32,000 nucleotides of DNA, taken from Candidatus Saccharimonadota bacterium (lineage in GTDB: Bacteria > Patescibacteriota > Gracilibacteria > BD1-5 > UBA6164). Shown here piece by piece: positions 1 to 32,000 of the stretch. The notes beneath the pieces were generated by a model, which did not search any database, was not told the DNA's origin, and saw only the letters and a list, made by a program, of their open reading frames with translations. How positions within the stretch are numbered: the first letter of the stretch is position 1; every line of letters starts with the position of its first letter. The translations under genes and the position numbers were made by a program. The stretch lies in NCBI GenBank assembly GCA_965227835.1, contig OZ245768.1:360001-392000 (forward strand), written 5' to 3'.

Positions 1-216
1 TTTTCAAAACACTGAGAAGTTGTATTTGCAAGAGTAGTTACTGATAGGGAAACTTGAAGATCTAGAGGTTTTTGATTCGTAGAATTCTCTTCTGTTGAAG
101 ATGCAGTTAAAGCAAAAGAAGCTATGGACTGAACAGAACTTGATTGAAGAAGTATCAAAGTTGATTTCGCTCAAGATAAAAGAGAAGAAACACAAGAACA
201 AAAAGAAGAAAGTTAG
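1..216 (+). CDS. RRM (RNP-1) RNA-binding protein, 5' end cut by window edge
   Basis: Frame 1 with TGA=Gly reads ...[53 protein letters not shown]... RGFGFVEF is the RNP-1 octamer. Five in-frame TGA fall where Gly is expected. TAG stop at 214-216, followed by a terminator. Confidence 0.85.
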
Positions 217-243
217 AAATATTCTAAATTGTCTTCTAAAAAA

Positions 244-277
244 ACCAAAAGATTTGAAAATCCTTTTGGTTTTTTTG
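244..277 (+). terminator. Rho-independent terminator
   Basis: Stem accaaaag (244-251) pairs with cttttggt (263-270), followed by a ttttttgtg T-tract directly after the RRM gene. Confidence 0.7.
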
Positions 278-335
278 TGTTTTAAAAATAATTATGTTAA
301 AATTCATTATATAAATTATTTGATTATAAAAAACT

Positions 336-1445
336 ATGACAAGTAAAGAATTAATAAACTATGTCCTTGATTATTCATCAAAAAAGAAATATCCAGATAT
401 ACATATAAATACCAATAAAAAAATAAAAATTAGAAATGAATCAGGTTTTATAGTAGATTTGGATAAAATAGAAGTAGAATCCAAAGAAGTTTCAATTCCA
501 GAAATAAATCTAGAAACTGTTAAATCCATAATAAAAGTTTTAGTTTGAGAAGACTGATATGAAAAATTTCAAACAAATAAAGAACTAGATTCTTCATATG
601 TAATAAATTCATGAGAAAGATTTAGAGTGAACTGCTATATTGATTCTGCTTGATATTCCATAGCTCTTAGAATAATACCAAATAAAATACCAGATTTAGA
701 CGAACTTGGTTTATGAGATCAAATAAAAAAAATGTGTGATTCTCAAAAAGGTTTGATTTTAGTTACTTGACCCACTTGATCTGGTAAATCTACAAACTTA
801 GCCTCAATGATAGACTATATAAACAAAACCCAAAATAAACATATTATCACAATAGAAGATCCAGTTGAATTTTCTTTCAAAGATAATAAATCTTTAATAA
901 ACCAAAGAGAAGTTTGAAATCATACAAAAAGTTTTGCCAATGCAATTAGAGCAAGTCTTAGAGAAGATCCAGATGTAATAATGATATGAGAAATGAGAGA
1001 TCCAGAAACCATAAAAGCAGCTATAACCCTAGCCGAAACGGGACATTTAGTACTATCTACTCTTCATACAAATGATTCTGTTCAAACTGTTGATAGAATA
1101 GTTGATGTCTTCCCTGAATCTTCACAAAAACAAATAAGAATGCAACTTGCTATGAGTTTATCATGAATAATTTCACAAAGATTAGTATCTAGGAAAGACA
1201 AAGAAGGTAGAATTGCAGCTAGAGAAATACTTATAACAAATGATGCTGTAAAAAATTTGATAATTTCAGGAAAAACTCATCAACTCTATTCAGTTTTGGA
1301 AGTTTCTAAAGCCGAATGAATGGTTCTTATGGATAAATATTTAATTGCTCTTTTCAAAAAAGAAATTATAAGCAAAGATTCTTTGATTTCATATTCCAGA
1401 GATAAAGAAGCTATAGAAATGATGTTTAAAGATAACCTTGGCTAG
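336..1445 (+). CDS. pilT: Type IV pilus retraction ATPase PilT
   Basis: 369 aa with TGA=Gly. Walker A GPTGSGKST at 768-794, with both non-GGN glycines encoded by TGA (768, 777). Also [24 protein letters not shown] and RIAAREILI motifs typical of PilT. TAG stop at 1443-1445. Confidence 0.95.
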
Positions 1446-1466
1446 ATATTTTTAATAAATACAATT

Positions 1467-2309
1467 ATGATTGATATAAATTTTTTCAAAAATTCCTGAT
1501 TCTTTGAAAAAAAGACTCTAAAAAAATGAGAGTATCTTTTTTGCGAATGAGAAGTGGATGAAAATATATATATAATAATAACTTGAGAACTTTTAATTGA
1601 AAAATTTACTAATCAAAATAAAGATGAAGCAAAAGTTTTAGCTAGTTTGAAAAAAGATGATGTTTTTTGAGAAGCAAGTCTCAACAACAACTTACCCAAA
1701 CAAGTAAGTATAAAAGCCAATAAAAAAACAGATATAATATATATAAATGCAATTTCGGGATTAAGGGATTTTTCTTCTAAATACCCAAATGAATCTTTTG
1801 ATTTATTAAAATATATAATACATTTATCAAATAATAGATTAAATGAATCAAATTCTTTGATAACAGCAAGTTACAAAATTAGTTCACTTATATCAAATAT
1901 AAATGATTTTAGTTTTAAAACTATTTTTCAATTAATTGAGGAAACAAAAATATTAACAGGTGTAAAAGATATAATATTTCTTGAAGAAAACCAAGTATTA
2001 AAAGAATATCTTACTATAAAATATAATACAAGCCAGCCTTGATTAATGCAAGATCAAATAATAAAGATAACTGATAATAAACTTGATTTACTAGAATTAA
2101 AAAGTTCCTGAGAATATATTTACATACAAAATATAAAAGTTTGAAATAAAAATTATTGATATTTAGTTTTTTTAAGAAAATGAAATGATTTTTCAGAAAA
2201 TGAAATAAAAATTATTTCTGTTTTGGGAGTTTCTTTTTCAAGTATAATCAAACAAAAAGAATTCATAGAAGAACAAAGAAACAAAGATTATATAAAAAAC
2301 AGAGTCTAA
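1467..2309 (+). CDS. Cyclic-nucleotide-binding domain protein with uncharacterised C-terminal domain
   Basis: 280 aa. The N-terminus (...GEYLFCEGEVDENIYIIITGELLIEK...DDVFGEASL...) matches the cNMP-binding beta-barrel pattern (FGE). Uninterrupted only if TGA is sense. TAA stop at 2307-2309. Confidence 0.6.
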
Positions 2310-2327
2310 CTAGACTCTGTTTTTTTG
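2299..2327 (+). terminator. Rho-independent terminator
   Basis: 9-bp stem acagagtct (2299-2307) pairs with agactctgt (2312-2320), then tttttttg. The stem overlaps the stop codon of the preceding gene. Confidence 0.75.
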
Positions 2328-2335
2328 TATTTCAG

Positions 2336-2588
2336 CAGAAAGCTTTAGCCTTCTGTTGTTTCTATATATTTCAAGTTATTAGTGTCAAAGAACTAGAACT
2401 CTCTGTTGATAAGAAAATTATAAGCTACTATCAAAATGCTAAATATTTCTGTTGAAACCAGCGAATTTCTTATGATATAAAAATTAGTAATATTTGATAA
2501 TGAATATATCTGTTTTCAGAGAGCTAAAGCTCTCTGTTGAAAGAACAAAATTTCTTACTGACAAAAGGCTAAAGCCTTCTGTTGAAAC
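2336..2588. repeat. Array of five ~27-nt hairpin-forming repeats in a convergent intergenic region
   Basis: Copies at 2336-2362, 2386-2412, 2432-2458, 2517-2543 and 2562-2588. Consensus caRaRRgctaaagcYYtctgttgaaaN. Copy 4 is a perfect hairpin, cagagagc-taaa-gctctctg. Copy 5 (caaaaggc-taaa-gccttctg) differs from it by two covarying base pairs. Confidence 0.7.
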
Positions 2589-2617
2589 GAAAATTAGTAT
2601 TATACTACAATTAGAAA

Positions 2618-4054
2618 TTAACTATTCTTAAATCTCCTCCTTATAAATATTATTATAAAACCTAAAATCAAGGATAATATAAGCATTATTATTGTTTCTG
2701 TTGGTCAAGTTTGTATTTCTGTAGCTTGTGATAAGTTTCAATGTATAACTTCTCAAGAATTTGTTTCTGTTTTTGCTTTTACTGCAAAATATTGATATTT
2801 TATTTCATCTCATGTAATCTCTATTTCAAATTTAGGTTCAACTACATTTGTTACAAATTCAAATTTACCTGTCTCCTCATTACTTTTAAGTACATCATAA
2901 CTTTTTGCATCTTCTAGCTTGTCCCAAGTTAATATAGATTTATTTTTAAGTTTTACCAATTTTAATCCTCATATTTCTAAATTAGGTTCTTCTTCCTCTT
3001 CAACTTCTTCAACTTCTTCAACTTCTTCAACTTCTGGTTTCTCTTCTGGAGGTGCAGCTTTCAGCTCAACTAAAAATACTTTTATCTCTGCTACATCTTT
3101 TTCAGTAACACTATGTCAAAGATCATCAACCAAAATTACATCCATACCAAATTTTTTCTCTTCACTTGGAGCTTTGAAACTTCAAGTATAAACACCATCT
3201 TCTGTCTCAGAAAGAGATATTACACCATCATTAAATAAAATTTTAACCGATTTAAGTCATTTGTTTGCAAATACTTTTATATCTATATTAGTATTTTCCT
3301 CTACCTCTCAATTCTCAGGCAGTGGAGATAAAACTATTTTTTTAAATCTTGGTTTACTATCATCTATATTTACTATTATATCACTTGATTCTCATATTAT
3401 ATTTTCATCAGAATCTAGCACAACTGCCTTTATTGTATTTTTTCATGTTACAAATCAATCTATATCTTTTTCAAATATTCAATCTGAGTTTGAAGTAGTA
3501 TTAAATACTTCCGTATTGTTTAAAGTTATTCTTACAGCATGGTTTCTTTTTGTAGCTCAAGACACTTTTACATCACTTTTACCTAAAGTCATATCTGATT
3601 CTGGACTTAATATTTCAATTTCAACTCTATCTTCTTTACTATTTCATTGTGCTGAAGCTATTACATTTACTTTTCATTTTCAAGTTACATTTTCATAATC
3701 ATTAGCATCATATAAACTTATACTTTGCTCTCAAACCGTGTTAAATTTTATTCAGTTTTCAAATTTTTTAATTCATCCATCAGATAAAGTGAAACTATAT
3801 CAATCATCATCTGCAAGTTCAGCGGGTAGTTCTACTTTATCATCTGTTTCAGAAAACCCAAATACATTACCAGTATAATCACTAACAACCTCATCATTCT
3901 TATCTAAAGCTGTTATTGTCAAATCAAGTGCTTCTCATACTCAAATAGACTCTGTGTTAAACTCTATTTTGAAATAATCTATCTCTCAAGCTTGAACACT
4001 ACTTGTATAAAAAAATACTAAAAGCAGTAGCAAATATTTTAATAAATTTTTCAT
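2618..4054 (-). CDS. Secreted/surface protein with Ig-like/FN3-like repeats and a C-terminal membrane anchor
   Basis: 478 aa on the minus strand with TGA=Gly. Signal peptide MKNLLKYLLLLLVFFYTSSVQA, beta-rich repeats, acidic PEVEEVEEVEEVEEEEEP linker, and C-terminal ...TGPTETIIMLILSLILGFIIIFIRRRFKNS (TM helix plus basic tail). The + strand Ser-rich ORFs here are its antisense. Confidence 0.6.
2998..3033. repeat. 9-bp tandem repeat (cttcaactt x4) encoding the (EEV)n linker of the surface protein
   Basis: Four direct head-to-tail copies visible at 2998-3033. Confidence 0.8.
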
Positions 4055-4201
4055 AAGCTGTTATTTTTGAAATTATATTATCACTAATTTATTTTCTTTA
4101 TAAATCAAAATAATTGTGAATTTATAAGTGCAATTCTATAGTTTTTAACAAAAAACACCAAACTATTTTTGAAAAACTAATTTACTATATATTTTTTTGT
4201 T

Positions 4202-5272
4202 TTATAAGTTAACTACATTAAATTCTTTTCAAAAATCATTTTTAATAGAACTTATAAATGTCTGGTATCAATCTATACTTCCTATAATCATATTTTTATG
4301 TTTTTCATCTAATTCACTTATTAAATCATCCAAAAGTAGTATAGGTTTTTTGTTTCTATATTTTTCCACAAACTTTATTTCCAAAAGTTTAAGTCATATT
4401 ATTACAGATTTTACTTCTCATCTACTTGCAAATTTTACCAATTCTAAATCATCAACCAATATTTCAAAATCGTCTATATGGGGTCATATACTTGTATTTC
4501 AAGATAATATATCTTTATTTATATTTTCTTCTAAATAATATATTATCTGCTTTTCTATATCTTCTAACTTCTCTTTTTTATCTTGTTTTTTTATTTCTAT
4601 TTTTGTCTTATAAATAAATTCAAAACTGCTTATCTTCTCTTCAAAATATTTTGTAAAATTTTTTGTATTTTCTCTTATAAAATCTATTATTCAAAACCTA
4701 TAATTATATATTATAGAAGCTTTTTTTGCCAGTTTCTCATTCCAAAAATTTGTTTCACTTTTAGATGATTTATTTTCTCTTATATTTTTCAATATCTTAT
4801 TTCTTGATATAAGTATTTTTTTGTATTCACTTAATATTTCTTTGTAATCTCTAAAAGTTCAAGATAAAATTTCATCTAAAAATTCTCTTCTAAGACTAGG
4901 GGACAGATACATAATATTCATAAGCATTGGAGAAAAATGTATTGTTGAGCTTACTTCTTCTAATAGTTTTTTTTTGGTGGTAGCTTTTTTATCAAATATA
5001 TATTTCTTCTTTTTATCTTTTTTGTCATAAGATATAGCTATTTTTGATCACTTATTATCTTCTGTCTCTATAAAAAAAATATCTTTATCTTTGTTTACTA
5101 GATTTTCAAAATCTAGTTTTGATAGTTTTTTTCAATGTATTATACTTATAGCTTCAAGTATATTTGTCTTTCATTTTCAGTTTTCACCAATTATAACATT
5201 AAATTTTTCATCAAAAAAAAACTCACTATCTTGAAAGTTTCTAAAGTTTTTTAATTTAATATTTTTTATCAT
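4202..5272 (-). CDS. recF: DNA replication and repair protein RecF
   Basis: 356 aa. MIKNIKLKNFRNF..., Walker A GENGKGKTNILEAI with TGA-encoded Gly. C-terminal GPHIDDF, ASRGEVKS signature and LLLDDLISELD Walker B. Confidence 0.9.
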
Positions 5273-5303
5273 GATTTGTGTTCCAAAAGTTAGTTTCGGA
5301 TTT

Positions 5304-5591
5304 TTACTTCATTATATTTGATATAGCTATTTGGTCAGATATAATTTCTTCTTCGCTACATTCTAAAAGCTCTTTTCTATTTATTTTATCCTGGCTTATC
5401 TCATCTTCTCTTAGTTTATTTTCTTTTGATATAACACAATATGTAGGTTCTACATCTTTTGTATCTATTTCATCTATTAGCTTGAAATAATCTAATATAT
5501 CATTTAAATCTTTTTCTATTTGCATACCTTGTGTATCTATCTTGCTTAAGTTTTTTGATATTTTTTTTATTTGTTCTTGTGTTAGTGTCAT
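5304..5591 (-). CDS. gatC: Asp/Glu-tRNA amidotransferase subunit C
   Basis: 95-aa ORF that is also intact in the standard code. MTLTQEQIKKISKNL...ILDYFKLIDEIDTKDVEPT...KLREDE matches the GatC pattern. TAA stop. Confidence 0.8.
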   Translation of the reverse strand: MTLTQEQIKKISKNLSKIDTQGMQIEKDLNDILDYFKLIDEIDTKDVEPTYCVISKENKLREDEISQDKINRKELLECSEEEIISDQIAISNIMK

Positions 5592-5760
5592 TTTTTATTA
5601 TATTTAATTTTAAATCAAAACCTTTTAATTAGTTTATATTTTTATTGGTTCTAACTAAATTTTTAATTCATTTTAAAATTTAATAGGGATAAAAGTTATT
5701 TTTCAAATGAATTTTTCAATTTATCTTTAATATATTATTAATATTATAAAAATCAAATAT

Positions 5761-6081
5761 ATGAGTTCAATTGGCAAATGAGATAAAGAAATAATAAACT
5801 ACCTTAGATTCAAAGCCTGTGTACTTTTTTTTGTTTTAATAAATTTTTTCTTTTTTCTTTCTTATTTTTTTGCAGGGGCTTGATTTTTTTATGAATATTT
5901 CATCCTTGTTATTCCTTATCTTTATATATCTCTTCTTTTTTCATTTTTTCTTCTTTGTGTTTTTGCTTTGAAATATAAATTTCCTAATCTAAACATTTTT
6001 TTACAAACTCTTATATACTTACTGGTTTTTATATTTCTTTGAATGCTCTCTTTGTTTATGGTTTTTGAATACATATTTTAG
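5761..6081 (+). CDS. Small hydrophobic membrane protein
   Basis: 106 aa with three predicted hydrophobic helices. Open only with TGA=Gly. No recognisable family. Confidence 0.45.
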
Positions 6082-6101
6082 ATTTTTTAAAATAAATTTA
6101 T

Positions 6102-6662
6102 ATGTTTAAATATATTTTATTTTTTTTAACTCTTTTTCTTGTAAGTTCTTGCTTTTTTTGAGGTTGAAATGATTCTGAATGAACTTTAAAAAAAGATTTT
6201 TCATCAAAAGATTTTTCAATAATGCTTCCTTCTTCTTGGGAAATAATTGAAAATAAAGATTCTATTTTACCTAAACCTGCTAACTGAGAAATAGTTTTGG
6301 CTATATCTTCAAATACCCTAAGAGATAATTTTTATAGAAATATGCTTATTTTAAGTCAGGAAATAAAAACAGATATTTCTTCTGCTAGTTTTATAAAATG
6401 AAATTATACTGCTTCTATAAAAGACTATTTTTATAAAAAACTTATAGATGATAAAGACTTTTCTATAGACGATAAAGATACAAAAATTTATCATTTTGAG
6501 GCTAGATACTCTGAAGATACACCTATAGTTAATTTTCTACAAACTTGAATTGTTTGTTGAGAAAAGGCATTTTTGATAACTATAGCTCTTGAAAAAAATA
6601 ATAAAAATATTTATAGATATGAAGATCTTTTATCTACATTTTCTTGTATTAATCAAGAGTAA
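6102..6662 (+). CDS. Lipoprotein, unknown function
   Basis: 186 aa. Signal peptide MFKYILFFLTLFLVSSC with a lipobox-like VSSC, followed by GGGND. Confidence 0.6.
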
Positions 6663-6799
6663 TTAAAATGGTTATCTTTTGGTAATATAAATTTATACAA
6701 TATTATTTACAAAAAACTAGGGAGTTTTAAAACTTTTGTTTGATTTTTTAAAATCAATTTATATAGTTTTTCAGTATTATTTTTAAAAATTAAAAAACT

Positions 6800-7372
6800 A
6801 TGTCCATGGAGTCATTTTTAAAAGAAGTTGTAAAATGAGATAAATTTGAACTTTTAATTGATACTAAAATTTTTAGTAAAGATGTTGTTTTGAAATCAGC
6901 TTATGTTTTTTTGGATAAGGGTTATTTTTTCTTTAAGACTGATTGAGAAAATATTTTACTTCAATTCACTTCTAGGGATAAATCATCTGATAAACCAGAA
7001 GATGTAATAGCTGATTTTTCTGATTGTTTGCTTGAAACTGTTTTGAGAGATAAACTTGAAAAAGATAACAAAACTATAAGGGAAACAATAGTTGAAAAAG
7101 CCATAAATTGACCTCTTGATGCTAGTAATTTTGTGAGTTTGGATACTGACAATATTGCTAATAATAGTGAACAGAATCAAGTTGATTTTGATAAGGATAT
7201 AGATGAAATTTTAAAAGAGATAGAAAATGATCCAGATTTGAAAATAGATGAGGAAGAGATAGAAAAGATATTGAAAGAAATAGAAGAAGAAACAGAAAGT
7301 GAAGTTCAAAAACCGAAACTTACTTTGGATCCTGATGCTATCAAGAAAGCTAAAAAAGATTTTAAGAAATAA
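6800..7372 (+). CDS. hxsD: HxsD-like protein with long acidic C-terminal extension
   Basis: 190 aa. The N-terminal ~110 aa contain ...DFSDCLLETVLRDKLEKDNKTIRETIVEKA, resembling the LLNDYxLRE signature I recall for TIGR03976 (HxsD). The C-terminal half is D/E/K-rich with a duplicated I-x-x-ILKEIE motif. Confidence 0.5.
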
Positions 7373-7394
7373 CTTATTAAAATATTTTAATATT

Positions 7395-7589
7395 ATGGAG
7401 AAAAGTTTTGAAATAGATTCAAATATTTATAGTTCAAGTTCTATAAAGCAAGCCATATCTGATTTTGAAGATATTGCTCTTTTATCTTTTAAATGATGAA
7501 AACTGTCTATTTCTTGAGAAGATGATTCTTCCGTGCAGGAAGTATTTAATGAGTTTATGAATTATGTTATTTGATTGAGTGTTGAGTAA
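7395..7589 (+). CDS. Small HxsD-like protein (second copy)
   Basis: 64 aa: MEKSFEIDSNIYSSSSIKQAISDFEDIALLSFKGGKLSISGEDDSSVQEVFNEFMNYVIGLSVE. Same N-terminal pattern as the upstream gene and an F-N-E-F-x-N-Y tail. Lies directly before the hxsB region. Confidence 0.4.
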
Positions 7590-7592
7590 ACT

Positions 7593-7859
7593 ATGAATCC
7601 AAGAATAAGTGATTTTTTTTGAATAAAAATAAATATGTATTATGGTGATCATAATCCACCTCATTTCCATGTTAAATATAATGAATATTCTGCTTTTATT
7701 TCTATAGAAAATCCTAAAATACTTGAATGAAACTTACCTATTAAAATTGAAAATCTTGTTATATCTTGGGCTGAACTTTATGAAAAAGAATTATTTGAAA
7801 ATTGGGAACTCGCTTTAAATAAAAAACCTTTGAAGCCTATATTACCATTTATAAAATAA
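7593..7859 (+). CDS. DUF4160 family protein
   Basis: 88 aa. The GIKINMYYGDHNPPHFHVKYNEY motif is the DUF4160 hallmark. Confidence 0.75.
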
Positions 7860-7860
7860 T

Positions 7861-8106
7861 ATGATACATACTGTTAAAAGTGCTATTAGAATAAAATGAA
7901 CTTATAAACTTAGCCTGGAGTTTGAAAATGGGGAAGAAAGAATTTTTGACTTCAAGCAATATGTTTGAGGTAATAATTTTATTTTTTGACCCTTAAAAGA
8001 TTCAGATACTTTTGATCTATTTAAGGTTGAGAATTGAACTGTCGTTTGGGAAACTTGAGCAGACTTCAATCCTAATTTATTGTATAAAAATTCACTAAGC
8101 AAATAA
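7861..8106 (+). CDS. DUF2442 family protein
   Basis: 81 aa. ...YKLSLEFENGEERIFDFKQY...VENGTVVWETGADFNPNLLY is typical of DUF2442, the usual partner of DUF4160. Confidence 0.7.
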
Positions 8107-8108
8107 TT

Positions 8109-9575
8109 ATGTTAAACTTAGAAAAAATTAAAAAAGCTGACACTAGTCAAATTTGATTTTTTAGATTTAAGAAATTTGATTCTGAAAGATACTTAATTAC
8201 AAATGATGCCTGAAAATTTCATTTCTTAAATTTAGAGGATTTTGATACTTTTGTGAGTTGAAAAAATTTAGATAGTTTATCTTGTTATGATGACCTATCT
8301 AAAAAATGATTTATCAAAACAGAAGACTATGAAGCTAAAATGACTGGTAGTGTAGCACTTAAAAATCATTTTGTGTGAGTTTGACCTACCTTGCATATGA
8401 TAGTTACAACTCTTAGATGTAATCACAAATGTAAATATTGTCATGCCGCTGTAGCTCCTATGTCTGCTAAAGAGTTTGATATGAGTCAGGAAACTGCAAA
8501 AAAAGTGGTTGATACTATTTTTTATACTAATTCTCCTAGTTTGACTATTGAATTTCAATGATGAGAATCTTTGGTAAACTATGATGTGGTAAAATTTATA
8601 GTTGAATATTCCAAACAAAGAGCTTTTCATTTAAAGAAAGATTTATCTTTGGTTATGGTTTCAAATCTTACCTTGATGACAGAAGAAAAACTTAAATGGC
8701 TTTTAGATGAAGGTGTAGATATATGTACTAGTCTTGATTGAGATGAAATAACACACAATAATAATAGAACTTGATTTGAATGAAATAGTTTTGAAAAAGT
8801 TACTTATTGGATGAAGAGACTTGGTGAAGAAAAAGAAAAGAGATGAATGTGAAATGTATGAGCACTTCTTACAGTTACAAGAGAAACAATGCCTAGATAT
8901 AAAGAAATTATTGATGCTTATGTTTCTATAGGTTTAGATTGAATATTTTTAAGATGGCTTAACCCTTATGGTTTTGCAGCAGCTCAGACTAAAGAGCTTT
9001 CCTACGAAGATCATGAATGGATAGAATTTTATAAAAAGTCCCTTGATTACATAATGGAGTTGAATAAAAAATGAACATTTTTCTCTGAAAGTATTACAAG
9101 AATTTATTTAGCAAAGATTTTTAATTCTAGAGATCCTGCATTTATGGATATTAGATCACCAAGTTGAATAGGTATAGGTTGAGTAGCCTACAATTATGAT
9201 GGAAAAATTTATGCTTCAGATGAATCTAGGATGCTTGGTAGGATGTGAGATGATGCCTTTTTGATGAGTGAATGATTATGAACCCCTGAAGAAAATTATA
9301 GAGAAATGATAAATAGTGATACTTGTAAAGCTTCTATACAATCATCTACACTAGATTGATTACCTGGTTATAATGAACATGTTTATAAACCTTATATTGG
9401 TGTTGATATAATACATAATTATAAAACCACAGGAAGTTTGTTTTATCCTATTATGAAAGATGAAAAAATAAAATTCCAAACAGAGATTCTTGATTATATA
9501 TTTAAAAAATTAGAAGACCCACAAGAAGAAAAAATACTTATGAGTTGGCTTGTTTGAAAGGAAGAAGTGATTTAG
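8109..9575 (+). CDS. hxsB: His-Xaa-Ser system radical SAM maturase HxsB-like
   Basis: 488 aa. ~100-aa N-terminal domain, then CNHKCKYC (codons at 8418-8441), FQGGESL (GG = TGA TGA), and a long C-terminal domain. Size and architecture fit HxsB (TIGR03978), with HxsD-like and HxsA-like genes in the same locus. Confidence 0.7.
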
Positions 9576-9641
9576 AATGATATAATGTAATAGATTAAAA
9601 TCTATTTCTACTTTGCTGTTAAATATAAAAACTGAAATTTT

Positions 9642-10085
9642 ATGATAATAAAAGAAGAATTTGAAATTAAAATTAATAATTTAAGTAAAGCTCTAGATTC
9701 ATTGAAAGAGTCAATTATTTTAGAGAAGAAGAATACTGAAAAAAATATTTTTTCTATATTTAGGGATTCGGCAATTCAAAGATTTGAATATACTTATGAA
9801 TTATCTTGGAAATTTATGAAATATATATTAGAAAAATATGATAAAGAAATAGAAACTAGAAGTCCCAGACAAACCCTTAAAACAGCATTTAGAGTAGGTT
9901 ATATTGATAATTTAAATCTTTGGTTTAACATTTCTGAATATAGGAATAAAACAAGTCATGAATATGAACAAGATATTGCAGATGAATTATTTGATAATAT
10001 ACCAGAATTTCTTGAAGAGATACAAAAATTTTATGAGTCTATAAAAATTAAGTATGATGGATGATATTTTGAGACAAATAAATAA
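9642..10085 (+). CDS. HI0074-type nucleotidyltransferase substrate-binding (HEPN-like) protein
   Basis: The track ORF (140 aa) extends 7 codons through TGA to TAA at 10083. RDSAIQRFEYTYELSWKFMK...RNKTSHEY matches the HI0074/TIGR01987 pattern. Confidence 0.75.
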
Positions 10086-10341
10086 AGTTTTAAGTAAACA
10101 TTTAGATAAGAATAAATATAAATTCTTTCTATATGGCTCTAGAGCTAAATGAAATTTCTTCTTTAGATCTGATTATGATATTTGAGTATTAGGTGACTCT
10201 AAAATAGATTTGAAAATAAAGTATAAAATAGAAGATGATTTTGAGAATATACCAGCTTTAATAGATTTTACAGATTTTGCCAGTGTTTCTGATGATTTTA
10301 AGAGATTAGCAATGAAGGATGTTTTGCGGTTGAATAAATAA
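10054..10341 (+). CDS. Minimal nucleotidyltransferase (MNT) partner
   Basis: 95 aa. FLYGSRAKGNFFFRSDYDIGV is the GS-x(n)-D-x-D nucleotidyltransferase motif. Overlaps the upstream HEPN-like gene. Confidence 0.75.
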
Positions 10342-10359
10342 ATTTTTAAATGATTTATT

Positions 10360-10807: not shown

Positions 10808-10817
10808 ATGATTTATT

Positions 10818-11675: not shown

Positions 11676-11695
11676 GAATTTATTTGAGATTTGAT

Positions 11696-12402: not shown

Positions 12403-12418
12403 ATTTTAATATTATTTC

Positions 12419-12859
12419 ATGTCTGATAAAAAAAAGAAAATTTTTCCAAAATTAAAGAAAAAGTTAAAATGATTTCTTACTGATGAGAGTGGTAAGATTA
12501 GTAAAAAAGATGCTCTTGGTTTAGCTGCTGGTGCTGCTTTGCTGGGTAGTGTTGGTGAGGTTGCCGCTCATAGTAGTTGACATGGTAGTTGACATGCAAA
12601 TTGAAAAAATCGTCGTGACAGTAGCCAAGATCATCACTGAAGTGCAGTTTGACATGGTAATGCTTCCTGTTCTGTAAATCATGCAAGTTGAATAGTAAAT
12701 TGACATTATAGTTGAACTCCGAATGCCACTGTTGTGTGAGACTCTTGACATTGAAGTGCTTCAGGATCAAATGCAAATGGTCATGGAAGTCATGGAAGTC
12801 ATGGAAGTCATGGAAGTCATGGAAGTCATGGAAGTCATGGAAGTCATGGACAGTGGTAA
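12419..12859 (+). CDS. hxsA: His-Xaa-Ser repeat precursor protein HxsA-like
   Basis: 146 aa: MSDKKKKIFPKLKKKLKGFLTDESGKISKKDALGLAAGAALLGSVGEVAA-HSSGHGSGHANGKNRRDSSQDHHGSAVGHGNASCSVNHASGIVNGHYSGTPNATVVGDSGHGSASGSNANG-(HGS)x7-HGQW. Basic leader, hydrophobic segment, then degenerate and finally perfect H-x-S repeats. 11 in-frame TGA codons. Confidence 0.75.
12782..12850 (+). repeat. Perfect 9-bp tandem repeat catggaagt x7 (plus partial copy) encoding (His-Gly-Ser)n
   Basis: Direct reading. Units start at 12782, 12791, 12800, 12809, 12818, 12827 and 12836, with partial catgga at 12845-12850. Confidence 0.95.
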
Positions 12860-16023: not shown

Positions 16024-17403
16024 ATGGATAGTTTAAATAAAGATTACTGGAATACCTTTGCTTTCATAGCTGATAATACAACCGAATGAGAAGTCTTTCC
16101 ACCAGAAGACTTATTTAAAAGCTGTTCTAAAAATGATATTTTTTCTCTAATAAAGAATTATGTAGATAGTTGAAACTATAATAAGAAACCATATTTATCT
16201 TTATATTTTAATTTTCCATATTGTAACGAAAGATGTAGTTACTGTTGCTTAGCTAGTATTTGATTAAACAATAAATCAAAAATAGAAAAATATATTCTAG
16301 AATTGATAAGTGATATAAAAGCTGTATGAAGAATCTTAAAATTAAATCCTCAAATAAAAATTGATATATTATTTTTTTCTTGATGAACTTTTACTATTAT
16401 TGACGATTTTTTATTTGAATTATTCCTGAAGACCATAAAAGATAATTTTCAATTTAAAGATAATTATACATATGAAATGGAATTACATCCTGCTACAACT
16501 ACAGAAAATAAAGTTAATATAATGAAAAAGTACTGAGTAAATACTGTAATGTTATGAATACAATCATTAGATGAGTTAGTTTTGAAAAATTCTAACAGAA
16601 TTCAAACAAATAAACAAGTATTTAATGCAGTTAATCTAATTAGAAAATTCAACTTCAAAACTCTTAATGTAGACATAATCGCTTGATTGCCCTTTGAAAA
16701 AATTAGTACTTTTGTCAATAACCTAAAAATCATAATTACTAAAATTAATCCCGATATTATACATATGTATCCATTTTCACCAACAGATAATACATTGTTT
16801 ACAAAAATGTGACATAAGTTTACATCAGAACAGATAATAAATAGAGATAAAATGTTTTTATTATGAGAAAAATTAATTAAATCTTTTGATTATATAAAGT
16901 CAGATTGATATGTAAAAGTTTGAAAAGAAGTAAATAGCATATGGTGAATGAAATGCTATAAAGATATGTCCGTAATATCTTTTTGATATCCCCTTGATAT
17001 TCAATGATATCTTGAATGAGTATGATGTTATACCTCTCGGTATAATAGTAGCTATGCTATATATACTTATAAAAGTAAAGATATTATTTTGAGAAGAGAA
17101 TTATTTAGACTAACTTGGCTTTGAAAAGATATAAATTTAGCACATTTAAACAATAAATTCTGAATAGATGTTTTAAAGTATTTAAGTAGTGAATTTAGAG
17201 TTTTATTTGATAGTAATATCATTAATTTTAAATGAAGTGAAATTATTAGTTTTAATACTAGATATGTTTGGGAAAAAACTATATGTAGATGGATTTTTTT
17301 ACCTAAAAATTTATTAAAGGAGTTTTTACTTAAAAATAAAATTAATCATAATATTAATTATATAGATAAATTTAGGAAAAAATTATGAGAATATTATAAA
17401 TAA
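16024..17403 (+). CDS. HemN-like radical SAM protein (paralog of the 13671 gene)
   Basis: 459 aa. LYFNFPYCNERCSYC, FFSGGTFT, MELHPATT, MLGIQSLDE and DIIAGLPFE fit the HemN/coproporphyrinogen-III-oxidase-like family layout. Confidence 0.75.
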
Positions 17404-17414: not shown

Positions 17415-18344
17415 ATGAAACATATAGAATTAAATATATGACTTGCTTGTAACCATAAATGCATCTTTTGTATGTCGGGTATTGCAAGATGAAAAATTTT
17501 GTGATTTGAAAATGTATCTAATTTAAAACATGAAATAGATACATTATCTTCTAAATGATATGATTCTATATGATTTTTATGATGAGAACCTACTATACAC
17601 CCAGGTTTTTTGGAATTAGTATCCTATGCTAAACAAAAGGGCTTTATTAATATTGAAGTTATAACAAATTGATCAAAATTTCATAATAAGAAAATCTTGT
17701 TAGAATGTGTTAAGTCAGGATTAACAAGAATATCTTTATCAATTCATTCTCTTGATTATAAGAAAGAATCTATTTTATTATGAGGTATAGATAATGCTTT
17801 AGATCAAAAAATAGAGTCAGTAAAGAATATAGTTTATATATATAATAAATGATTATTAAAAAAAGAGCTATCTATAAATATTGTTGTAACTAAAAAAAAC
17901 TATAAAGATATCTATAAATTAATATTATATCTTTATAAGTTTTGAGTTAATTCTTTTAGGCTTAATTTTGTTCAACTTGAATGATATTCAACACAAAACT
18001 ATAATTTAATAGCAATAAAATATGAGAATTTTAAGAAATATCTATTAGATATAATATCACTAAGTAAAAAATATTTAGATTTAAGAGTAAATTTTGAAGC
18101 TATACCTTGGTGTTTTAGTTGATTGAATTATAAAGATTATTTAATATATTCAGAACAATCTATCGATAGGGAAAAAGATAAAATATCTAGAGACGATATA
18201 GATTTTAAATCTAGAAATATTATAAATCAACTTGATAGAAGAAAAGAATTGAAGTGATATATAAAAAAATGTAATATGTGTTTTTTGAAATCAAATTGTG
18301 AAGGAATTTGGAAAAGATATTTAGAATATTTTAATATTAACTAA
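17415..18344 (+). CDS. Radical SAM protein with C-terminal Cys-rich (SPASM/twitch-like) tail
   Basis: 309 aa. NIGLACNHKCIFC, GFLGGEPTIHP (17571-17591, three Gly by TGA), and C-terminal KKCNMCFLKSNCEGIW. Confidence 0.75.
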
Positions 18345-20187: not shown

Positions 20188-20197
20188 ATTAAAACCA

Positions 20198-22065: not shown

Positions 22066-22088
22066 AAGAAAAATATATTAGTATAAAA

Positions 22089-23719: not shown

Positions 23720-24450
23720 TTTGATATTGTAATATATTTGAACAAGTTATAATTTGATGAAGCAAATTAAAAATAGATGTACTGATTGATGATTATGATT
23801 GAACTGAATTAGTTTTAGATATTTCGAATTATTCACACAAGAAATTTATCAGTTTTTTTTGTAATAATTTTTCTAAAATTATAGAAGTTAATTTTCTTTG
23901 ATATAAGGGATTAAGTTGTGGTAAAAAATCTTTAGATTCTAGGATTAAACTGAAAAACAAATGAAATATTTATTACTCAAATACAATATGAAATTATATT
24001 TTTAATGAAGATTTTGTATGTATTAACAATTATAACTTTAAAAATCTTGATCATCATTTATGAGTATATAATAAATATGAAAATTCGTTATATGAACAGG
24101 TAAGGGGAATAAATAAGATAAAATTATATCCGAATGACATTATTTTTTTTGACAGAAATAAATGAAATTTGAATAATTTTATAAATTTATGACTTAATTT
24201 TAATTATATAATTAAGAGTTATATAATTAATTTAAAGAGATGAAAAAAAAGTATTTTTTATAGAAATATTTTTTGAAAAGATTCTAGTGATATAGTATAT
24301 GAAAATATAAATAGAATATTAAAAAGTTTCAAATATGGTACATATTTTATCTACAATGTTGATTTAGAATATTTAGATAATTATGTATTTGATGAAAAAT
24401 ATTATTTATATGACTATCATTTTAAACCAGTTTTTAGTAATTTTATTTAA
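23695..24450 (+). CDS. Hypothetical protein
   Basis: 251-aa open frame with TGA=Gly, overlapping both neighbours. No family recognised. Confidence 0.45.
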
Positions 24451-25409
24451 TGAAAAAATTGAAACACATAGAAATAAATATTTGAAAAGCTTGTAACAAT
24501 AAATGTAAATTTTGCATGAGTTCGAAACCTTCTTTATGGGATATAAAATTCTCAAAATTTGATATCATAAGGAAAAGTCTAAATGAATATTATAATAATT
24601 GATATAGATCTGTTTGATTTTTATGATGAGATATATCAATACATCCGAATGTATTAGAAATTATTAAATGTTGTAGAGAAATATGATATCAGAGTATTAA
24701 CATTATTAGTAATTCTATGAGGTTTAGTGATTTCTCTTTTGCATATAATATAGTAAAAAAATGACTAACTAGAATTAATATATCAATACACTCTCATATT
24801 AGCTATATTGAAGATGATTTAACTCAAGTAAAATGATGATTACAAAAAAAACTAAGAGCAATAGATAATTTTTCTTTTTTATATAAAAAATGAATTTTAC
24901 AGAGTCCAATTAGTATTAATATTGTTGTAAATAAAAAAAATTATTTATATATTGTTGAAACCGTTCTATACTTTTTTAAGGAAAAAAATATAAAAGATAT
25001 AAGAATAAACTTTATTCGGCTCAGTGATGATGTGAAAGAAAATTGGGATTTGCTTAAAATATCATATAGTGAGTTCTTGCCATATTTAAAAAAGCTTATA
25101 TATCTGTCTCTAAAATATAATATAAGAATTACTTTTGATACCTTTCCTCCATGTATATTTTATTTAGTAAGTTTTAAAAATTATAAATATATCATTAATA
25201 AGTTTTTATGAGAAAAGTTTGATCATATAAACGAAATACTATGGTTGAATAAAGAAACAAGTTTTAATTGGAAAGATAGGAAAGCTAATGAATTGAAGGC
25301 AAAATTTAAACAATGTAGTAACTGTTTTTATGAAAATGTTTGCGAATGAGTATGGAAAGAATATGATGAAATTTATTGAAATAAAGAATTTATTCCCATA
25401 AAATTGTAA
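24450..25409 (+). CDS. Radical SAM protein (paralog of the 17415 gene)
   Basis: 319 aa. NIGKACNNKCKFC, GFLGGDISIHP, GLTRINISIHS, and C-terminal KQCSNCFYENVCEGVW. Collinear with the 17415 protein. Start overlaps the upstream stop (TAATG). Confidence 0.75.
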
Positions 25410-25413
25410 TAAA

Positions 25414-26601
25414 ATGTGATATGTGAAGATATGTTTAGATGACGATATTAATACAATTATTTATAATACTTACTACCATGTAAAACATTGAATAAATAAT
25501 GTATTATTTTATAATAGTTTAAATGGAAAAACTTTAAATAAAAATAAGGTACTAAAAGTTGTATCATACATGATAAATAAGCATAATTCTGTAAAATATT
25601 TGTTTTATAATGTACCATTTTGTATTTTTGATAAATTGTGAAAGAAATTTATAGATAAATATTGTGTATTTAACAGATTATGTAATTATTATATTTGATA
25701 TAATAGCTATGGCAAATGTAATTTGTGCGATTTTGGTTTATTTTGTAATAATTTTAATTCTCTAATTAATAATAGTGAAATAAAGGAATTAAACGGTTTT
25801 TACTGAGAAAAAATTAATAAATATACTTTTTTGATAAAGTTTATAAAAATATATAATTTTTTCATAATGCTATGATATTCTGATAATGAAATAATCTTGA
25901 GTTCAAGGCAGAAATATTTTATGCAATTTTTGAGGGGTGCTAAAATTAATAAAAATTTCTTATCATATTTAACTTTGACTATTAAATTATCTAATCGATA
26001 CATAAATTATAATGTCTTTAAAAATAAAAATAAAATTGCTATTTTTAAAAATAAATGTTTAAATGATATATTTTTTTATTTACAAAGAAAGTGCTGAATA
26101 AATATTTTGTTGGAATGTGATAACTCTACAATTGATTTATTTGAAAGTAATAAATTTGTAGTAAACTTTCTTGGTAAAAACCTAATTTTTTTAAATACTT
26201 GATTTTATAATATAGATCCCCCCTTTTTTGATTTTGATTATAATAATTTATTTTTAGATAAAAATGCTACTGTATTTAAGTGAGTATCTTTAAATAAAAA
26301 TTTAGGTATATTTTATGGGAATGCTAGAATTGTAAAAAACTCAAAAGATTTTTTGTACAATAGAATTTGAGATGTTTATGTTTGAAAAGATATTTTTTCT
26401 TGAGTAAATATTGAAAGTTTTAAGGCTATACTTATTACAAGTGATTGATCATCAGAACATGTTAGACTCTACGAAATAATAAACTCTATAAAAGTTCCAA
26501 TTATTGAAAGGATAAAACCAAATATAGTAGAAATTATAAAAAATGGAAGTAAATTAAAGATTGATTTTAGTACTTGAACTATCAATTTAATTAAAACATA
26601 A
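25414..26601 (+). CDS. Cys-rich protein resembling a stand-alone auxiliary-cluster (SPASM-like) domain plus unknown C-terminal domain
   Basis: 395 aa. The N-terminal third carries PFCIFDK...YCVFNRLCNYYIGYNSYGKCNLCDFGLFC. No CxxxCxxC/GGEP core. The frame agrees with track ORF 25897-26097 read through TGA. Confidence 0.45.
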
Positions 26602-27633
26602 ATTTTTAAAAATTAATTGTATTTAATTTTATTATTTCCATTTTTGAGATCCCCCCTTTATTTATACAGAAGTAGTAAAATATAATAGAGATTTAAAGTT
26701 GAAAGATTTATCTTTAGTTATAAAACCTCGTTGACTCTTGAATTGATTTTAATTATACCATTAATTGTATATATGTTAGACATATTTATATATTTAAAAT
26801 GAGGCATAATAGTAAAAAATGTGTGGCTAAAAGAGATATTATTTGGTAATATAAAAGCAAATACTCTCTAACTTTTATCTATGGGAAATAAAACCTACAC
26901 GAAAAATTGTAATAAATGCTGATCAAATGAAATAAAAAAAGATTGATTTAAGAGATGAAAATAAAGATATAAATGTAAAAAATGTTGATATGTCTTTCAG
27001 AATAGTAGTAGAAAACAAAAGGTAAATATAAACAAACTATATCATGACTATTGTTTTTGAAAACAAACATATGAACAACTATCAAATACATACTGAATAT
27101 CAATTAAAACAGTTCAGAAAAATTTAGATGAATATAAACTACAAGTACCACAAATAAAAGCTAAAGAAGTAGTACTGCTAATAGATACAACATACTTCTG
27201 AAACCTCTGAGTAATGGTCTTCAAAGATGCTTATAGAAACAAAGTGCTTCATATCAAGATAGTAGATAATGAGAATAATGAAGACTACAAAAACTGAGTA
27301 AAAGAACTAGAAAAAGCTTGATTTATAATAAAAGCTATAGTTTGTGATTGAAGAAAATGATTATTGAATTGATTTTCAAATATTCCTACTCAGATGTGTA
27401 ATTTTCATCAGGTAGCTATAGTGAGAAGGTATATAACTAAAAAGCCTGTTTTAGAAGAAAATAAAGCGTTAAAATGGATTACAGATTTACTTACAAAAAC
27501 AGACAAAGAAACTTTTAGCTATTATCTTGATTTGTATTGAGAAAAGTATAAAGATTTTTTAAATGAAAAATCTTTATGAAGAGATTGAAAGTTACATTAT
27601 ATACATAGAAGAACTAGGAGTGCATATTTTTCT

Positions 27634-28704
27634 TTAAAAAGGGTAATGGTCCTTTAGATAGGTACCACCAATTTTAGCAAGATTATCTAGGATAAGGACA
27701 GGGAAATTATTAAATTTTGTAGGAAGAATTATATTACAACTTCTAAGTTTTTCAATAGGACTTAAACCGTTCATACCTATTCAAAAAGAAGGTCTATAAT
27801 TATTATAAGTATAAATATATTTACTACTATGGTTTAAAAAATTAGGAAGAGATTTCATGCGATCAAGATAAGGTCTATATAATTCTTCATCATCAGTTCT
27901 ATGAGATCTCTCTACAATTCATTGAAGATATTTTTTTCAAGCAGGAATACTCTTAAAACAGCAATTTATATTATTTAATATAGCATTCCACTGATTTTCC
28001 TTTCTCTTACTTCATCCACAAAAATCAGCAGGGCCATTATCTCATTGAAATTCCATATGATAATATATTCACATACTCCTAAGATATGTAGCTATAGTAA
28101 GTATAAACATAAGACCAAATTCAGAAGAAAGACTATGAGAATAAGCTATAAATTTATATTTTGTTTTAGCACATATATATGTCCATTGATATAAAGGAAG
28201 ATTATATTTTCTTAGTATAAAACAAAGTTCTCATAAAGCTTCAAAATCTTCTATATGCTTTGTATCTACTTGACCATACTCAAAGGGAAGAATATTTTGA
28301 TAATCGTATAGAGGTTTACTATCTCATTTTCTACGAGAATAATGATGCTTTTTTACTTTGTTTCTTTTTAGTATATTTCATATAGTAGAGGAAGAGAATG
28401 TTATTCCATATCTGAGGAATAAATACTTTGCTAGACGTACTCTTCAATATTTTGTTTTATTTCGTTCTTGTAATACAAGTCATTCTAAATCAGAAGATGT
28501 TTTTTTATTATGAGGAGTCTTAGGAGCTCTTGATATATTTTCTATAGGACCATCTCTACTTCTTCTTACTGTTTTACGAGAACATCATAATATATAAGCT
28601 GTTTTACTTACGTTTCCTTTGTTTTCTTCAAGTATCGACCTCGCGAGGATTCTTGCTGATTCTACTCCTTGCTTAGTACACATTTTTTCATATAATCATT
28701 TCAT
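27634..28704 (-). CDS. DDE (rve-type) transposase of the nested IS
   Basis: 356 aa with TGA=Gly. N-terminal HTH region, then ...GQVDTKHI..., ...EFQGDNGPADF..., ...GKKYLQGIVERSHRTDDEE..., the D, D, E integrase-core pattern. The stop lies within the left target duplication. Confidence 0.8.
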
Positions 28705-28819
28705 AAGAGGTTTGGGATTATAAAATAAAATTTTTTACAAAATCTATTATATCCTCATCCTCTTTTTTACACAATTCCATATCAATAAATAGTGGTACCT
28801 ATCTACTGGTACAGATAAT
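27642..28819 (-). mobile_element. Nested IS (IS481/IS3-like rve transposase) with 15-bp target-site duplication
   Basis: Direct repeat tttttctttaaaaag at 27627-27641 and 28820-28834. Perfect 14-bp subterminal inverted repeat tagataggtaccac (27655-27668) and gtggtacctatcta (28792-28805). Confidence 0.75.
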
Positions 28820-29050
28820 TTTTTCTTTAAAAAGAAATTTGAAATATTTATTTACTCGGTATGATTATATCTGACAAATAGATATTCCAAATACTACTAA
28901 CTGATTAGAGTGAATTTTCGGTCATATTAAATGTAAAGTTGCTTTACATAGATGACTTAAAAAAGAGAGAAAAATTAAACTAATATTATCTCTCTTATAT
29001 AGGAAAATTTAAGTCTCTCAGCCACCCACTTTTTACAATTAAACCTAAAA

Positions 29051-30319
29051 ATGGAAAATAAAATAAATTTACTCTCAAAAGAACAAACAACAAAACAAAA
29101 TAGAATATGGGTAAGGATAGCATCAGCCTGTAACAATAAATGTATTTTTTGTTTGGATAGTGATGCTCAAAATGGAACATTCCCTCAAGAACAAACCATC
29201 AAAAAACAAATAAAAGATTGATATAAACCTTGATATGAAAATAGAGTTATTATTTCTGGTTGAGAAGCTTCAATTAATCCCAGATTTCCAGAATATATAT
29301 CTTATGCCAAGATTATTTGATATCATAGAATTCAAACAGTTACAAACGGAAACATGTTTTTTAGAAAAGAATTCTGTGATAAAGTATTTTATGCTTGACT
29401 TGAGGAAGTCACTTTTTCTTTTCATTGACATAACTCAAAACTCCATGACTACCTCGTCGCAACTCCATGAGCTTTTAAAAAATCTTTGCAATGACTTATT
29501 TATATAAAAAAATATTATCCCGAAATTATCCTAAATGTAGACATAGTAGTAAATAAGGTAAATGTAAAGTATCTTCCAGACATCGTTAAATTTTTTATGA
29601 AACTTTGAGTGTATGAATTTGATATTCTCCAAATTATACCTTTTTGAAGGTGATTTCGTGAATATAAAAAACAGCTATTTTATGATATATCGACAAATGT
29701 TTACCATTTACAAAAAACATGGGAACTATCAAAAATACCTTGAATGTATATGTGGACCAATAGATTTCCAGTTGAAGCATTTGAATGATATGAAGATTTA
29801 ATTCAAGATCCAAGAAAGATAAAATCTGAAGTTATGTGAGAAGGTAGGGAAATGTTTGAATCATTTATAAAATCTAAATGAAAAGATAAGCCTGAGTGCT
29901 TTTGAGAAAGATGTGATTATTGTTTTTTAAATCAGTATTGTCATGGTTATATAAATAATATAAATACCAAGAAGTTAGATATAAATTCAAATTATAAAAT
30001 TATATATTGAGAAGAGTTTCCAAGCCTCGTTTATGAAAAATATTGAGAGAATTCAAAAGATTTTAAAAAATATTTAAAATCAATAAATAATAAATTAATA
30101 AATATTCCAAAATGCTTATGATGAACTTGAATTTATCAAAAATATAATGATTTAAAACAAAGAAATACTTTAGAGGATTATACCTATAAATATATTAAGA
30201 ATTTATATATAAAGAAATCTTTAAATTGTAAAAAATGTAAATATAATAATAAATGTGAAGGAATTCATATAAATTTTATAAGAAGTTATGGTTTTAGTAT
30301 TTTACAACCAATTAGGTAG
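29051..30319 (+). CDS. Radical SAM protein with C-terminal Cys-rich region
   Basis: 422 aa. VRIASACNNKCIFC, IISGGEASINP, VTFSFHGH, and later ECFGERCDYCFLNQYCHG and LNCKKCKYNNKCEG. Confidence 0.75.
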
Positions 30320-30412
30320 TTTTATCATATCATTTTTACTTTTTTTACCCGATTATAAGTTTAAATGTAGTTATTAAAAATTAAATTATATATCAATTAA
30401 CTATAAATTTAA

Positions 30413-31357
30413 ATGGCAAATATTTGATACATACAAGTAAATAGACATTGTAATAATGCATGTCATTTTTGTAGTAATCCAAGTAATGGGAATAATATTA
30501 GCTATGAAAGATGAATATATCTTATAGATGATTTTGTAAAAAGATGATATAGATGAATAATATTCACATGATGAGAGCCAACACTTTCACCAGATTTGCC
30601 TAACTGGCTTGCATATACAAGGGAAAAATGAATAGAAAATAGAATGATATCTAACTGAATGATGTGTTCAAATTCGAAATTTATGAAAAATTTAGCCGAA
30701 TCTTGATTAGAATTAGTTCATTTTTCTGTTTATTCTTGTTTTTCTAAAATTCATGATTTTTTGACAGATACACCTGGAAGCTGGGAAAAATTAATAAAAT
30801 CTATAACAAATGCTTTAAACAATTGAGTAAGAGTTCAAATAAACACAGTTATTAATCATTATAATGAAAATCATTTAGATAAAACAATAAAATTTTTGAC
30901 TAAAACCTTTCCTCCTATAACTCATTTTGTTTGGAATAATTTAGATCCACTTATGATGAGAAAAACTGGCACTGCTTGGTCTACATTGCCAGATTTTGAT
31001 AATTTTAAAGAATCCTTAAAAAAAGCAACATATTATTTAACTGTAACTTGAAGAACTTTTAGAGTTGAAAGAGTTCCTCTTTGTTATATGAATTGATTTG
31101 AATGGGCTTCTACAGAAACTAGAAAAATTGTAAAAAATGAAGAAAGAATAGTTCATTTTTTAGATGATAGAGAAACTATTAGGCAGTATTGAAAACACTG
31201 GGAGCATAATAAGTTAGACTGATGTAAAAGTTGTGATTTAAATAGTATATGTTCATGAATTTATGAATACAGAAAATATTATAATTATGTAAACGTTTAT
31301 CCTCAAAAATTAAATAAAAAAGAAAAACAAGATATAATAAACAAGATAAATATTTAA
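30413..31357 (+). CDS. Radical SAM protein with C-terminal Cys-rich tail
   Basis: 314 aa. QVNRHCNNACHFC, IFTGGEPTLSP, VHFSVYS, and C-terminal DGCKSCDLNSICSGIY. Confidence 0.75.
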
Positions 31358-32000
31358 TTATTTTATAAATTCACTTTCAAAGATTTCTAAAAATAATTTT
31401 GTTATATAGCTAATTATACTATTTCAAAAAATAAATGTAATTACAAATGAAGCTACAATATATGGCGCAAAAGAAAAAGTTCTTAATATTTTTAAATTTT
31501 TTATTTTCATAAATCAATTTGTTTTTTTTTCAATATGGTGATTATTTACCAAGCTAAAAGATTTTTTTATTAATAAGGAAGTTTCTTTATCTATAGGATT
31601 TGATATTTTTGAAAAGTATAATCATGGGTTAGGGTATAATAGATAGTTTTTTTTCTTTTTTTCTTTTTCATTAGGTTCAATATATCATAAAATAGCTTGC
31701 CTCCCCAACATCTTAACCAAATATTCTTTATCCACAATATCACCCTCTTTCAAATCTCTTATATTAATAAATTTCATCTCAGAAATATGAAAAGTAATCT
31801 TATAAGCATAAAAAAGAACTCTAAAAATAATATATATTCATATATATAAAGTAAAAATTAAAAACAAGTACCCTAAAATTTCACTTGGATTTTTGATATA
31901 CTCATAAAATACAAAACCCAATAAAATAATAAATAAAATGACCAAAAACACATTTCAAACTAAATCTAGTCTTAACTTCAACCTATTAGATAAATATTTT
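31358..32000 (-). CDS. Polytopic membrane protein, 5' end outside the window
   Basis: The minus-strand frame is open across the whole region with TGA=Gly. It has several hydrophobic helices and ends ...KILRTFSFAPYIVASFVITFIFGNSIISYITKLF...FIK*. The stop abuts the convergent radical-SAM gene's stop with no spacer. Function not recognised. Confidence 0.45.

Follow-up and report, generated by a model that had tools for sequence, protein, structure and literature searches.

We examined the genetic code of a 32,000-nucleotide (nt) stretch of DNA, called the window below, which is positions 360,001–392,000 of the single-contig genome OZ245768.1 (1,489,121 bp, 25.5% G+C). As judged from comparative sequence, there can be little doubt that in this genome UGA is an ordinary codon for glycine, and its main one, that UGG stays tryptophan, and that CGG is very probably read as tryptophan as well. 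The contig is a complete 1.49-Mb chromosome from a Gracilibacteria-type member of Patescibacteria (candidate phyla radiation, CPR); genomes of this phylum span 0.5–2 Mb, and the nearest named PilT loci are labelled as Peribacteria or Gracilibacteria metagenome-assembled genomes.

UGA codons and their decoding

An original prediction, made from the letters of the window, held that TGA encodes glycine here according to NCBI table 25, that the standard track of open reading frames (ORFs) is misleading, and that with TGA as Gly about 40 contiguous genes appear, all ended by TAA or TAG. The frames of the window bear this out. Under the standard bacterial code (table 11), 4 ORFs of at least 100 amino acids (aa) are found, against 45 under table 25. 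Greedy sets of non-overlapping ORFs were built with a minimum of 60 aa. Under table 11 the set holds 29 ORFs (median 69 aa), covering 21.6% of the window; when TGA is sense it holds 39 (median 252 aa), which cover 90.5% and end in TAA (31 cases) or TAG (8 cases). In-frame codons of 38 window genes include TGA 381 times, GGN 137 times and TGG 54 times. Stop-to-stop frames of at least 100 aa delimited by TAA and TAG only number 56, compared with a mean of 2.27 and a maximum of 8 in 200 shuffles of the window. The count of open frames was set aside as sole proof, because 82 long frames open as well when TAA is read as sense, the DNA having 22–26% G+C; open frames alone are thus weak evidence, and the columns of homologous proteins decide.

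Codon usage was taken from 957 non-overlapping frames of at least 150 aa from the whole genome. TGA occurs in them 16,539 times (43.0 per 1000), the four GGN codons together 8,102 times (21.1 per 1000), and TGG 2,410 times (6.3 per 1000), so that TGA makes up 67% of the Gly codons of the genome. Counted together, TGA and GGN imply a Gly content of 6.4%, which is normal.

For the column test, the frames were aligned, with TGA, CGA and CGG masked as X, to G124, a standard-code genome from the same class (complete, 962 kb, its prfA free of in-frame TGA), and to part of a further genome (G115), giving 309 best alignments. Gly is the partner in 62% of the 5,223 TGA columns and in 78% of those with conserved flanks, the same level as the true Gly codons GGA (61% and 77%) and GGT (69% and 82%); TGG faces Trp in 55% and 64% of its columns, and Trp is absent from the six commonest partners of TGA. 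A likelihood test, its substitution frequencies estimated on the codons left unmasked, gives Gly as the most likely meaning of TGA, with a lead of 5,932 nats over Ser, the next candidate, and of 13,279 nats over Trp. When each of the 62 sense codons was left out in turn, only TGA and CGG departed from table 11; a call of ATG as Leu in this test was rejected as an artefact that arises because Met has only one codon. Alignments of paralogues within the genome agree: 31.5% of the partners of TGA are TGA itself and 12.4% are GGN codons of Gly, the latter a 5.1-fold enrichment. Within the window, the comparison with the standard-code genome comes down to two genes and 20 columns, 11 of them Gly, since most window genes have no orthologue there; those without one include the Hxs (His-Xaa-Ser) and radical-SAM (S-adenosylmethionine) cluster, the toxin–antitoxin modules and the insertion sequences.

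Individual window proteins (Table 1) give the same picture. The PilT-type ATPase, which carries 11 TGA codons, was compared with 80 homologues drawn from many phyla. At five of these codons, Gly makes up 80% or more of the column (residues 145, 148, 194, 218 and 328, with Gly in 80, 76, 66, 80 and 72 of the 80 sequences); the remaining six comprise a codon in a Gly/Ala column, another where Pro is conserved and four at variable positions, and none of the 11 lies in a Trp column. Alignments of PilT to solved structures agree with TGA as Gly. In RecF, the TGA codons outside the Walker A motif include some on GPH, SxGQ-signature and C-terminal Gly positions; in an alignment to the solved RecF structure 5z67, G stands opposite residues 34, 261, 283 and 335, and A opposite residue 32. 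Structure alignments of the HxsC-like radical-SAM protein place its two consecutive TGA codons opposite the GG of "faGGEPt" in 7tol, 9dfu, 9dfn and 9dfw, and a further TGA opposite the G of a T-N-G motif ("itnx" against "tNG"). HxsB passes the curated cut-off of its family only with TGA read through. Pfam scores, compared with TGA as Gly and as Trp, are 182.1 and 159.8 bits for T2SSE on PilT, 56.1 and 42.5 for SMC_N on RecF, 52.2 and 43.3 for Radical_SAM on HxsB, 63.5 and 36.4 for RRM_1 on the RRM protein, and 79.7 and 61.0 for a fifth window protein.

ARAGORN reports 37 tRNA genes in the genome, one of them with the anticodon UCA (1264268–1264346). Its acceptor stem (GCGGGGG...CCCCCGC, followed by U73 and CCA) is like that of tRNA-Gly(UCC), and it carries every element of the published glycine identity rule, that is, G1:C72, C2:G71, G3:C70 and U73 (PMC8629427). 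The tRNA folds as a cloverleaf of 79 nt, its acceptor stem being 7 bp and its variable loop 5 nt long; it matches the Rfam tRNA model with 46.2 bits, not tRNA-Sec, and differs by one base from the copy in a genome of the same family (G155). tRNA-Trp(CCA) is a separate gene (84767–84841) with A1:U72 and G73. This tRNA(UCA) is dedicated to UGA, its acceptor-stem and discriminator signals being those recognised by glycyl-tRNA synthetase, which would charge it, and UGG is read by tRNA-Trp(CCA); U34 of tRNA(UCA) presumably avoids pairing with UGG.

A six-frame search of the complete genome found release factor 1 (RF1) and no gene for release factor 2 (RF2). The single class-I release factor gene reaches 432.6 bits with the prfA model, above its cut-off, and only 248 bits with the prfB model, where the cut-off is 370. 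RF2, the terminator at UGA, has been lost, with RF1 terminating at UAA and UAG. Among 101 sampled genomes of the phylum, prfB is over the cut-off in 96, and in-frame TGA in prfA is restricted to three families of the class, including that of the window. An RF2 match over the cut-off is also missing in four members of the phylum outside this class (G021, G033, G052 and G079). Gaps in the assemblies or additional recoded lineages could explain this; the listed completeness of G079 is 99%, and two other genomes of its family have RF2.

Much of the original prediction can be judged from these results. It had placed in-frame TGA on motif glycines of PilT, RecF and the GGEP box, and each codon that it cited lies where it was said to be. 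It expected TGA to occupy Gly columns rather than Trp or variable ones, which the column test confirms at the rate of the GGN codons, and it expected TGG to remain Trp, as at the ...HGQW end of the HxsA-like gene, where TGG is indeed the last sense codon. The checks that it proposed came out in the same direction: family models score higher with Gly than with Trp in five of five window proteins, by 9–27 bits, a tRNA(UCA) with glycine identity is present beside the separate tRNA-Trp(CCA), and no intact prfB was found in the genome.

CGG, CGA and their tRNAs

CGG is very rare (0.3 per 1000; 113 codons in the long ORFs of the genome). Of its 13 columns in the test against the standard-code genome, 6 have W and one has R, as compared with R in 50% of the columns of CGT and 56% of those of AGA. 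The posterior probability of W is 0.999999 in the likelihood test, in which W leads R by 31 nats. The same-family genome, which was fetched in full (1.18 Mb) and is also recoded, provides a second comparison: of 21 CGG codons of the genome studied here, 16 are matched by TGG and none by AGA, AGG or CGT, and in the reverse direction 18 of 26 CGG codons of the relative align to TGG. In one case CGG occupies the Trp position of ...IAPWNFP..., a conserved stretch that we take to be an aldehyde-dehydrogenase motif, and the orthologue in the relative has TGG at this place.

The tRNA with the anticodon CCG, called tRNA-Arg by ARAGORN, has A1:U72 and G73 like tRNA-Trp, unlike the three other tRNA-Arg genes, which have G1 and A73. 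These features recur in the same-family genome with compensatory changes in the stem. The published rule for a tRNA(CCG) of tryptophan type is G73 and not A20, with an A/G1:U72 pair as a supportive element (PMC8629427). Taken together, the codon columns argue that CGG is very probably read as Trp in this genome, and tRNA(CCG), with its Trp-type A1:U72 and G73, may be the tRNA that does so. The prediction that table 25 applies to the window thus holds in its assignment of TGA to Gly and fails, very probably, in its assignment of CGG to Arg. Table 25 is inexact for this genome to the extent that Trp at CGG alters three residues of the window, and 113 across the long ORFs genome-wide.

CGA looks to be still an arginine codon. 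It faces R in four of eight columns against the standard-code genome, with Arg as the best inference (0.986); against the same-family genome none of 15 CGA codons aligns to TGG, the commonest partners being AAA and AGA, and one CGA stands on the Arg of a conserved DR[IL]HNMRTL stretch. It is used 167 times in long ORFs, at Arg/Lys-like positions. Of the other tRNAs of the CGN box, tRNA(GCG) reads CGU and CGC, and tRNA-Arg(ACG) was not found. CGA as Trp, the pattern of Absconditabacteria, was rejected on these counts (none of 15 at TGG, R favoured) and on the lack of a tRNA(UCG) of Trp type.

Alternative readings

UGA as tryptophan, as in Mycoplasma and Spiroplasma (table 4), would open identical frames, low G+C genomes often use that code, and among paralogues TGA–TGG pairs are 1.7-fold over background, as expected for codons one mutation apart. 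We nevertheless consider this reading extremely unlikely: Trp lies outside the six commonest partners of TGA and far behind Gly in likelihood, TGA and TGG together would raise Trp to an abnormal 4.9% of residues, the UCA tRNA has glycine identity and tRNA-Trp keeps its CCA anticodon, and all five window proteins score lower on their Pfam models under table 4. Equally, there is practically no chance that the standard code holds, with the in-frame TGA codons produced by pseudogene decay, sequencing error, selenocysteine or read-through. What speaks for it is the "SeC" label that ARAGORN attaches to the UCA tRNA, which comes from the anticodon alone; a selenocysteine tRNA was rejected in view of the ordinary-sized cloverleaf and the match to the Rfam tRNA model. 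The 957 long frames contain 16,539 in-frame TGA and no TAA or TAG, the TGA codons are concentrated on conserved Gly columns, RF2 is absent, and relatives in three families show the same pattern.

For CGG, the alternative is that plain table 25 is the full code, with CGG as Arg and its alignments to TGG due to chance or to real Arg/Trp substitutions. The apparent A20 of tRNA(CCG), which with C35 and G36 makes up the classical arginine identity set (PMC8629427), and the small samples favour this view; we hold it to be improbable given the excess of W over R in the columns, the alignments to TGG and to none of AGA, AGG and CGT, the likelihood difference, the CGG at the Trp of ...IAPWNFP..., and a G73 and A1:U72 unlike those of the three other tRNA-Arg. 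It is also conceivable, if unlikely, that the CGN box has been caught in mid-reassignment, as a living intermediate of a sense-to-sense change. In that case the mixture of Arg (A20, C35, G36) and Trp (A1:U72, G73) signals in tRNA(CCG) would lead to ambiguous charging, and CGA would be effectively unassigned or read through C34:A pairing of the same tRNA.

Several observations weigh against UGA as Gly, CGG as Trp and CGA as Arg, the reading that we prefer. About 20–40% of the TGA columns are non-Gly in the partner genome, which reflects divergence rather than another meaning, because the GGN codons show the same rate. The PilT codon at 714–716 (residue 127) stands in an L-G-L-P column with Pro in 77 of 80 homologues; here the protein truly deviates from the conserved residue, and the column is not one of Gly. 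The CGG samples are small (13 and 21 columns), and an informative homologue column was available for none of the three CGG codons of the window, where Trp follows from the genome-wide result. The D-loop of tRNA(CCG), AATTAGAA, read as positions 14–21, seems to have retained A20, which is the chief identity element for arginine, so that the published rule leaves the identity of this tRNA undecided; G18 is also replaced by A. For CGA, no tRNA with the anticodon UCG or ACG was found by ARAGORN at a relaxed threshold (51 calls). Finally, every codon assignment made here rests on comparative sequence.

Genes of the window and relation to known codes

With the codons read as proposed, the window contains the 3' end of an RRM gene and genes for PilT, a cyclic nucleotide (cNMP)-binding protein, a surface protein, RecF, GatC and HxsB, together with a run of nucleotidyltransferase/HEPN-like and AbiEii-like toxin–antitoxin genes, an HxsA-like protein, a U32-like protein, kinase-fold proteins and two insertion-sequence transposases. 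About a dozen genes encode radical-SAM proteins, several of them with weak HxsC- or HemN-like similarity that in each case lies far under the family cut-off. The coordinates of the features discussed are collected in Table 1.

Table 1. Positions in the window of the recoded stretch, of proteins with informative TGA codons, and of CGG and CGA codons.
Feature	Position	Strand	Remarks
Recoded stretch	1–32000	.	TGA as sense; 39 non-overlapping genes, 90.5% coverage
RRM protein, 3' part	1–216	+	TGA 73–75 is the fourth residue of RNP1, RGF-G-FVEF
PilT-type retraction ATPase	336–1445	+	11 TGA; 768–770 and 777–779 are the Walker A glycines, G-P-T-G-SGKST
RecF	4202–5272	-	12 TGA; 5177–5179 and 5171–5173 in Walker A, G-E-N-G-K-G-K-T
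HxsB radical-SAM maturase	8109–9575	+	23 TGA; TIGR03978 486.2 bits, cut-off 370
HxsA-like His-Gly-Ser repeat protein	12419–12859	+	C-terminus ...HGQW, TGG 12854–12856, then TAA
HxsC-like radical-SAM protein	17415–18344	+	TGA TGA 17580–17585 is GG of GGEP; TGA TGA GAA CCT 17580–17591
CGG codon	10327–10329	+	Residue 92 of MNT-type nucleotidyltransferase gene 10054–10341; probably Trp
CGG codon	17038–17040	+	Residue 339 of HemN-like radical-SAM gene 16024–17403; probably Trp
CGG codon	25017–25019	+	Residue 190 of radical-SAM gene 24450–25409; probably Trp
Gene with CGA	7299–7589
Gene with CGA	13792–15009
Gene with CGA	22032–23018
Gene with CGA	25414–26601
Gene with CGA	27634–28704

The HxsA-like gene encodes its glycines with 12 TGA and 17 GGN codons, a GGN share that is unusually high for the genome. 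Between 13792 and 31357, the radical-SAM, U32 and kinase-fold genes have no best match with E < 1e-20 in the same-family genome, unlike the genes at 336–9575 and the one at the right end of the window, which do match it; this suggests that the cluster was added in this lineage.

Outside the window, two tRNA genes beside tRNA-Val(UAC) (genome positions 257018–257207, minus strand) have 8-nt anticodon loops with one extra base. ARAGORN gives their "anticodons" as ggaa and tttg, and they score 59.7 and 53.3 bits on the Rfam tRNA model. Both of them and the tRNA-Val(UAC) lack an encoded CCA end, unlike seven other tRNA genes inspected. In the same-family genome, the closest of the complete relatives that were compared, ARAGORN calls a candidate tRNA at 71054–71127 with the anticodon UUA, matching the stop codon UAA.

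In practice, a pipeline using the standard code sees about one-fifth of this locus, as fragments of 60–140 aa, and misses PilT, RecF, the Hxs maturase and the row of about a dozen radical-SAM genes; in this annotation point the original prediction was correct, as it was in noting that the recoding is already known for Gracilibacteria/SR1, with which both the literature and NCBI table 25 agree. UGA as Gly has been known in Absconditabacteria and Gracilibacteria since 2013 (Campbell 2013, Rinke 2013, cited in PMC8629427), and proteomic proof exists for a BD1-5 bacterium (PMC4032931). The UGA finding adds one more genome and no new principle, because the code has been known for that long, is backed by proteomic proof in a relative and is listed by NCBI as a separate table. 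CGA, which is Arg-like and has no visible tRNA, is a data point on the reassignment of Arg codons in AT-rich CPR bacteria, and the CGN box, with its mixed-signal tRNA(CCG) and a CGA for which no tRNA is visible, is the only part that might repay experiment.

Compared with table 25 (SR1 or Absconditabacteria, and Gracilibacteria), the genome shares UGA as Gly through a tRNA-Gly(UCA) with G1:C72, C2:G71, G3:C70 and U73, the loss of RF2 with retention of RF1, UGG as Trp, a very low G+C content, membership in Patescibacteria and a recoding confined to few families of the class. For UGA nothing differs; the mismatch with this genome lies in CGG, which the table keeps as Arg. The likeness to table 4 of Mycoplasma and Spiroplasma extends to UGA as a sense codon, the loss of RF2 and a small AT-rich genome, but UGA is Gly rather than Trp and the UCA tRNA is of Gly type rather than Trp type. 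Shulgina and Eddy (2021) predicted with Codetta that CGA and CGG encode Trp in Absconditabacteria and CGG encodes Trp in some Gracilibacteria (PMC8629427; also PMC13092985). With this prediction the genome shares a very rare CGG placed at Trp/TGG positions, a tRNA(CCG) with G73 and A1:U72, the lack of a tRNA-Arg(ACG) and a tRNA(GCG) for CGU and CGC. It differs in that CGA, unlike in the Absconditabacteria pattern, is not Trp, no tRNA(UCG) was found, and tRNA(CCG) seems to keep A20. Among the known patterns, the genome fits that of some Gracilibacteria in which CGG alone is reassigned.

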